Source: Escherichia coli
Lineage (GTDB): Bacteria > Pseudomonadota > Gammaproteobacteria > Enterobacterales > Enterobacteriaceae
Assembly (NCBI RefSeq): GCF_017348835.2
Contig: NZ_CP072315.1
Strand: one strand, 5' to 3'
Length of the DNA stretch: 64,000 nucleotides
Positions within the stretch are counted from its first letter, which is position 1. Each line of letters starts with the position of its first letter. The notes under the pieces were generated by a model. It was not told the origin of the DNA. It saw only the letters and a list, made by a program, of their open reading frames with translations, and searched no databases. The position numbers and the translations under genes are program-made. Shown piece by piece: positions 1,881-2,546 of the stretch.

Positions 1881-1952
1881 GCATAACGTTTGACATGAGG
1901 GGCGGCCAAGGGCGCCAGCCCTTGGACGTCCCCCTCGATGGAAGGGTTAGGC
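1881..1952 (-). other. attC site of the aac(6')-Ib-cr cassette
   Basis: Reverse complement reads GCCTAACCCTTCCATCGAGGGGGACGTCCAAGGGCTGGCGCCCTTGGCCGCCCCTCATGTCAAACGTTATGC, the characteristic aacA4 attC ending in a GTTRRRY core. Confidence 0.6.
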
Positions 1953-2546
1953 ATCACTGCGTGTTCGCTCGAATGCCTGGCGTGTTTGAACCATGTACAC
2001 GGCTGGACCATATGGGGTGGTTACGGTACCTTGCCTCTCAAACCCCGCTTTCTCGTAGCATCGGATCGCTCGCAAGTTGCTCGGCGACGGGTCCGTTTGG
2101 ATCTTGGTGACCTCGGGATCATTGAACAGCAACTCAACCAGAGCTCGAACCAGCTTGGTTCCCAAGCCTTTGCCCAGTTGTGATGCATTCGCCAGTAACT
2201 GGTCTATTCCGCGTACTCCTGGATCGGTTTCTTCTTCCCACCGTCCGTCCCCGCTTCCAAGAGCAACGTACGACTGGGCATACCCAATCGGCTCTCCATT
2301 CAGCATTGCAATGTATGGAGTGACGGACTCTTGCGCTAAAACGCTTGGCAAGTACTGTTCCTGTACGTCAGCAAGTGTCGGGCGTGCTTCTTCTCCGCCC
2401 CACCACTCGACGATATGAGATCGATTTAGCCACTCATAGAGCATCGCAAGGTCATGCTCAGTCATGAGGCGCAGTGTGACGGAATCGTTGCTGTTGGTCA
2501 CGATGCTGTACTTTGTGATGCCTAACTTTGTTTTTGCGTTGCTCAT
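1947..2546 (-). CDS. aac(6')-Ib-cr: aminoglycoside 6'-N-acetyltransferase AAC(6')-Ib-cr (fluoroquinolone-acetylating variant)
   Basis: Translation from ATG at 2546: [32 protein letters not shown]... Contains GDGRWEEE (Arg for Trp102) and TTPYGPAVY (Tyr for Asp179), the two -cr substitutions as remembered. Confidence 0.9.

Follow-up and report, generated by a model that had tools for sequence, protein, structure and literature searches.

Does the acetyltransferase gene carried by a class 1 integron in this stretch of E. coli DNA encode ordinary AAC(6')-Ib, or the fluoroquinolone-acetylating variant AAC(6')-Ib-cr? For annotation, the distinction between a -cr call and a plain aac(6')-Ib call matters because the two alleles are only 2 nt apart, which makes them easy to confuse. 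The gene lies close to one end of the window, by which we mean the whole stretch of 64,000 nt that was analyzed, with positions counted from its first letter. The aac(6')-Ib-cr variant is reportedly that of Robicsek et al., from 2006. It is defined by the substitutions Trp102Arg and Asp179Tyr (PMC12061968). The initial annotation had proposed that both are present, with Arg at residue 102 in the string GDGRWEEE and Tyr at residue 179 in the string TTPYGPAVY. The features needed to judge this are the following.

1947-2546, minus strand: aac(6')-Ib-cr coding sequence, ATG at 2546, 199 codons plus TAA (translation, 1V0C alignment, NF033074, identical annotated genes)
2241-2243, minus strand: codon 102, CGG = Arg (translation; the aligned wild-type column is W)
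2010-2012, minus strand: codon 179, TAT = Tyr (translation; the aligned wild-type column is D; T/G difference from the wild-type allele of the Aeromonas hydrophila plasmid pK522-MOX, L005)

Translation of the minus strand from 2546 to 1947 gave an uninterrupted ORF of 199 amino acids. In this ORF, GDGRWEEE starts at residue 99 and TTPYGPAVY at residue 176, so that Arg falls at 102 and Tyr at 179; the coordinates, strings, and residue numbers that had been proposed are exact for the 199-aa form, and both signature substitutions are indeed there. In a search of all PDB chain sequences, the protein matched wild-type AAC(6')-Ib (1V0C, 2BUE, and 2VQY) from end to end, with E = 3e-130. Aligned with 1V0C, 197 of the 199 residues are equal and W102R and D179Y are the sole differences, while Leu117 and the N-terminus of the crystallized protein are held in common. 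We looked in this reference alignment for Trp102 or Asp179 in the window protein and found Arg, encoded by CGG at 2243-2241, opposite the W of 1V0C, and Tyr, encoded by TAT at 2012-2010, opposite its D. Since Trp is encoded by TGG only, the CGG codon is one T to C step away from wild type. Similarly, Asp is encoded by GAT or GAC, so that TAT is one substitution away (G to T, if from GAT). The NCBIfam model for AAC(6')-Ib, NF033074, scored 428 bits against a cut-off of 400 and matched residues 17-199 at profile positions 2-184 of 184. The AAC(6')-Ib backbone is otherwise intact, with no frameshift, truncation, or extra substitution.

When presented with identical DNA, AMRFinderPlus returned aac(6')-Ib-cr5 at 100%, whereas the CARD/RGI label for the 600-nt ORF is AAC(6')-Ib-cr6 at 98.99%; allele names therefore vary by database. 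AAC(6')-Ib-cr5 (WP_063840321.1) has 100% DNA identity to the window over the whole 600 nt, carries both defining substitutions, and differs only in the annotated start (GTG at 2501, as opposed to ATG at 2546) and in the database allele label.

Given how close the alleles are, we considered the possibility that the sequence had been misread, and that the gene is in fact plain wild-type aac(6')-Ib, or another allele outside the -cr group, without fluoroquinolone activity. The band of ≥99% identity in our search of E. coli genomes cannot tell -cr from wild type. However, the CGG and TAT codons, the R and Y that stand here against W and D in 1V0C, and the -cr5 name given at 100% to identical DNA leave a misreading of this kind vanishingly improbable. 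The wild-type allele was ruled out on the two codons and the 1V0C alignment. An assembly or sequencing artifact was ruled out by the 100% identity to many independent records, and chance is an unrealistic explanation of the match. There is nothing contradictory to the identification, and we conclude, with a probability of about 97%, that the minus strand of 1947-2546 holds an intact, ordinary aac(6')-Ib-cr gene, the NCBI allele AAC(6')-Ib-cr5.

One further residue bears on the substrate profile. Residue 117 is Leu (GIDQLL starts at 113), and corresponds to position 119 in the numbering of PMC3656343; the Ib11 structure and the pK522-MOX allele have Ser there. Leu at position 119 goes with the type I, amikacin-active profile, Ser at this position is carried by the Ib' and Ib11 variants, and the meaning of L119S is given in the same source (PMC3656343).

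The window protein is a GNAT-family aminoglycoside 6'-N-acetyltransferase. On the basis of published work, it would transfer the acetyl group of acetyl-CoA to the 6'-amine of kanamycin, tobramycin, and amikacin. With W102R and D179Y, the free piperazinyl nitrogen of ciprofloxacin and norfloxacin would be acetylated as well. It had been suggested at the outset that the two changes extend acetylation to these two drugs, and the literature agrees, attributing N-acetylation of the ciprofloxacin and norfloxacin piperazinyl amine to the two substitutions (PMC12061968; PMC7730664). The Tyr of D179Y is thought to pi-stack with the quinolone ring, and W102R to position the drug or the Tyr (PMC7730664; PMC11323783; PMC3656343). 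Because the sequence is identical to that of a characterized allele, we infer with high confidence that the window gene encodes the same fluoroquinolone-acetylating activity. The expected outcome would be a low-level rise in MIC, and only for ciprofloxacin and norfloxacin.

The surroundings of the gene are those of a class 1 integron.

2793-3806, plus strand: intI1, full-length class 1 integrase, 337 aa (NF011946, 799.5 bits; plasmid annotation)
2654-2668, minus strand: 3' end of attI1 (CCTAAAACAAAG-TTA junction), the junction with the first inserted sequence (sequence read)
1881-1952, minus strand: aacA4 attC, from the inverse core GCCTAAC at 1952-1946 to the core GTTATGC at 1887-1881
1398-1850, minus strand: arr-3, second cassette (NF033144; annotation, Arr-3 100%)
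792-1265, minus strand: dfrA27, third cassette (NF000330; annotation, dfrA27 100%)
1-611, minus strand: aadA16, fourth cassette, 5' part only, the gene being cut by the window edge (annotation of identical DNA)

The inverse core of the aacA4 attC overlaps the stop codon of aac(6')-Ib-cr, and the site folds as an imperfect hairpin (DNA fold of -24.7 kcal/mol, z = -5.2), with none of 200 shuffled sequences being as stable. At the other end of the cassette, a core site, GTTAGGC, is found at 2526-2520. The gene thus has the attributes of a class 1 gene cassette, namely core sites, a folding attC, and a location downstream of attI1, intI1, and the cassette promoter Pc, and it is the first cassette after attI1 in the array aac(6')-Ib-cr/arr-3/dfrA27/aadA16. 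What is atypical is a foreign leader of 131 nt between attI1 and the aacA4 cassette proper. Beyond the 5'-CS of the integron comes IS26 (tnpA at 4288-4992), an arrangement shared with NZ_CP090540.1 and NZ_CP090546.1.

Two possible starts of translation have to be weighed.

2499-2501, minus strand: alternative GTG start (RefSeq/PGAP CDS 1947-2501, the 184-aa AAC(6')-Ib-cr5, WP_063840321.1)
2556-2560, minus strand: GGGAG, a Shine-Dalgarno-like sequence 9 nt upstream of ATG 2546, identical to the RBS of the qacE leader

The 102/179 numbering holds only for the 199-aa form that starts at ATG 2546; in the 184-aa form from GTG 2501, the same residues are R87 and Y164. In the numbering of AF479774, which we also refer to as Tn1331 numbering, the substitutions are W104R and D181Y (PMC3656343). 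We therefore considered whether the real product is the 184-aa protein, in which case the 199-aa ORF and its residue numbers would be mere convention. Every RefSeq record that we looked at has the PGAP annotation of 1947-2501 as WP_063840321.1, the NF033074 match begins only at residue 17, and the N-termini of AAC(6')-Ib proteins are heterogeneous and have mostly never been established by experiment (PMC3656343). Against this, the GGGAG sequence precedes ATG 2546, and when the sequence upstream of GTG 2501 was read, no Shine-Dalgarno-like sequence was present. In addition, the 199-aa ORF shares its N-terminus with the crystallized wild-type protein 1V0C, and where the gene is flanked by IS26, the 46 nt ahead of the ATG are still present. 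The shorter product appears rather unlikely, and we favor, without regarding it as proven, the 199-aa product from ATG 2546, because of the GGGAG before this ATG and the lack of anything comparable at GTG 2501. The choice of start affects neither the catalytic core nor the two substitutions, and N-terminal variation is apparently irrelevant to function (PMC3656343).

Closer to the start codon, the DNA turned out to be a composite.

2535-2657, minus strand: 123-nt leader, copy before aac(6')-Ib-cr, a perfect direct repeat of 600-722
600-722, minus strand: 123-nt leader, copy before aadA16 (100% repeat)
2526-2534, minus strand: AAAACAAAG, which repeats the final 9 nt of attI1 and supplies codons 5-7 (KTK)

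The first 102 nt of the leader match, at 102 of 102 positions, the sequence that leads the qacE/qacEdelta1 cassette where the 3'-CS begins (L001), and the last 21 nt are the start of the aadA16 cassette, TTAGACATC ATGAGCAACGCA. A third copy of the 102-nt leader is located before qacEdelta1, just outside the window (L001). The sequence AAAACAAAGTTAG occurs at 2665-2653 and again at 2534-2522, and the aacA4 cassette proper begins at 2525 (TTAGGC...). Consequently, aac(6')-Ib-cr has its RBS and codons 1-4 (MSNA) in common with aadA16, and its codons 5-7 come from attI1.

On other plasmids, attI1-leader-aadA16 is present as the first cassette, and in some of them aadA16 continues in frame into aac(6')-Ib as one fusion gene, annotated ant(3'')-Ij/aac(6')-Ib. 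The bifunctional ANT(3'')-Ij/AAC(6')-Ib fusion of Aeromonas hydrophila pK522-MOX (L005, 3715-5106) agrees with the window at 226 of 226 nt across the 5'-CS, attI1, the qacE-type leader, and the opening 12 nt of the ORF, and its 9-nt attI1 remnant and aac(6')-Ib part match the window at 584 of 588 nt. It retains 264 codons (792 nt) of aadA16, an in-frame segment that the window lacks and that accounts for the difference between the two loci. In its AAC part, the fusion is non-cr (W102, D179) and has T20 and Ser117 (the latter being the Ib' type), and the four differences from the window are in the codons for N20T, W102R, L117S, and D179Y. A related arrangement was seen in L006 (3715-5088), where aac(6')-IIa is the in-frame fusion partner of the attI1-leader-aadA16 gene.

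These comparisons suggest, rather than prove, that the common 199-aa form descends by deletion from such a fusion. Stated in full, the proposal is that the 199-aa aac(6')-Ib(-cr) gene, now found worldwide, may owe its RBS and codons 1-4 to a source other than aacA4, that its 5' region could be what is left of the ant(3'')-Ij/aac(6')-Ib fusion after 792 nt were lost in frame, so that the common -cr gene would be the remnant of a collapsed fusion, and that the 123-nt repeat could recombine. We offer this as a tentative idea, possible but on the doubtful side.

We then asked how the gene might be expressed. Pc and P2 were located by an explicit pattern search.

2880-2908, minus strand: cassette promoter Pc, weak variant, TGGACA-17 nt-TAAGCT, with TCG, not TGN, before the -10 hexamer
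2764-2789, minus strand: P2 position, TTGTTA-14-TACAGT, the form without the GGG insertion

The Pc sequence TGGACA-17-TAAGCT without TGN is one that we take, following the naming and strengths of Jove et al. 2010, to be the weak variant, and residues R32 and H39 of IntI1 fit this assignment. P2 with a spacer of 14 nt is presumably the inactive form. A promoter and terminator scan of 1850-3000 returned no sites, and no strong sigma-70 site, at thresholds that exclude hexamers as weak as those of Pc. No promoter could be assigned to the qacE-derived leader, in which the best -10-like hexamer is CATAAT, with no acceptable -35 at 16-18 nt in this context.

A useful comparison is the IS26-aac(6')-Ib-cr-blaOXA-1-delta-catB3 module of IncF plasmids (NZ_CP023845.1, L002), which carries the same 600-nt gene as the window, preceded by the same 46 nt up to the ATG. 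In that module, attI1 and the greater part of the leader have given way to IS26, and blaOXA-1 follows as the next cassette; the window, in contrast, has the full leader, attI1, and intI1. At 2942-2970 of L002 (E. coli p4_1_1.1), the end of IS26 abuts the truncated leader, creating a promoter-like site, TTGCAA-17-CATAAT, 46 nt upstream of the ATG, which is absent from the window.

Transcription of the window gene would presumably start from the weak Pc, and translation from ATG 2546 with the GGGAG borrowed from the qacE cassette leader. Because the weak Pc variant is the only recognizable promoter, expression may be low. One could go further and argue that the gene, although a genuine -cr allele, is effectively silent or of little phenotypic effect, with the weakest Pc, an inactive P2, and other quinolone and aminoglycoside determinants of the plasmid family dominating the phenotype. 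The lack of TGN in Pc, the 14-nt spacer of P2, and the absence of a consensus promoter from the scanned region are in line with this, as is the company that the gene keeps: aac(3)-IId, aph(3'')-Ib, and aph(6)-Id inside the window, and oqxAB some 9 kb away on the matching plasmid. However, the first cassette position is the best expressed in integrons, a plausible RBS and ATG are present, and the leader may add promoter activity of its own. Furthermore, this exact array is spread over many genera, which fits selection for function. A gene that is silent or of little phenotypic effect is, on balance, very unlikely.

The extent of that spread can be gauged from public records. Positions 1-4100 of the window are 100% identical in all 25 of the plasmid records listed, whose hosts are Klebsiella, Escherichia, Salmonella, Enterobacter, Citrobacter, Shigella, and Leclercia, and in which the gene is annotated as aac(6')-Ib-cr. 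Altogether, 383 records cover 80% or more of this region. Compared with the known class 1 array aac(6')-Ib-cr/arr-3/dfrA27/aadA16, both order and sequence are the same over this region, and no difference was seen. Among 5,426 complete E. coli genomes, 646 have a match to the 600-nt gene, a figure that is an upper bound for -cr, since the band of ≥99% identity includes wild type. All 15 of the E. coli matches listed are 100% identical and annotated as "fluoroquinolone-acetylating AAC(6')-Ib-cr5". The four genes of the array are named together in 188 papers. Neither the allele nor the array nor the plasmid family is new; each is represented in public databases and widely published.

Over its entire 64 kb, the window is 99.99% collinear with Salmonella enterica p2016062-242 (NZ_CP090540.1, IncHI2A, conjugative; ~117,526-181,525), with 4 mismatches and 1 gap. 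The coordinates of the resistance genes between ~10755 and 31650 were transferred from the annotation of that plasmid and are accurate to +/-1.

13380-14591: ISVsa3-floR (NZ_CP090540.1 annotation)
15197-17149: tet(A)/tetR(A) (NZ_CP090540.1 annotation)
17729-19368: aph(6)-Id and aph(3'')-Ib (NZ_CP090540.1 annotation)
19432-20244: sul2 (NZ_CP090540.1 annotation)
20552-21403: IncQ-type repC remnant (NZ_CP090540.1 annotation)
within ~10755-31650: IS6100 (NZ_CP090540.1 annotation)
24547-27271: mphR(A)-mrx(A)-mph(A) (NZ_CP090540.1 annotation)
30793-31650: aac(3)-IId (NZ_CP090540.1 annotation)
~35262-36137: blaCTX-M-55, extended-spectrum beta-lactamase, between two IS26
~39214-62599: IncHI2 backbone, with umuDC, a TraG N-terminal domain protein, trhH, mobI, MobH relaxase, and traD

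Six IS26 tnpA genes were found, at 4288-4992, 8250-8954, 22159-22863, 27393-28097, 32748-33452, and 36735-37439, two on the plus and four on the minus strand. The IS26 copies divide the resistance region into modules, and the window is an IS26-built mosaic. An ORF of 730 aa at 6585-8777 on the minus strand was rejected as a gene; it arises where an open frame antisense to IS26 reads through into the gene for a PAS-domain methyl-accepting chemotaxis protein, which is annotated at ~6585-8162 on the matching plasmid.

Outside the window, NZ_CP090540.1 carries oqxAB at 106267-110615, on the aadA16 side of the integron, where its annotation is that of a phenicol/quinolone efflux pump. With oqxAB in addition to aac(6')-Ib-cr, plasmids of the NZ_CP090540.1 family therefore carry two plasmid-borne quinolone determinants.

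As the IncHI2 backbone comes with transfer genes, the resistance island sits on a conjugative plasmid. Recombination between the two 123-nt leader copies inside the window would remove aac(6')-Ib-cr, arr-3, and dfrA27 together, in a single event. As it stands, aac(6')-Ib-cr, a plasmid-mediated quinolone resistance determinant of clinical relevance, shares an IncHI2-type conjugative backbone with arr-3, dfrA27, aadA16, floR, tet(A), sul2, strAB, mph(A), aac(3)-IId, and blaCTX-M-55.
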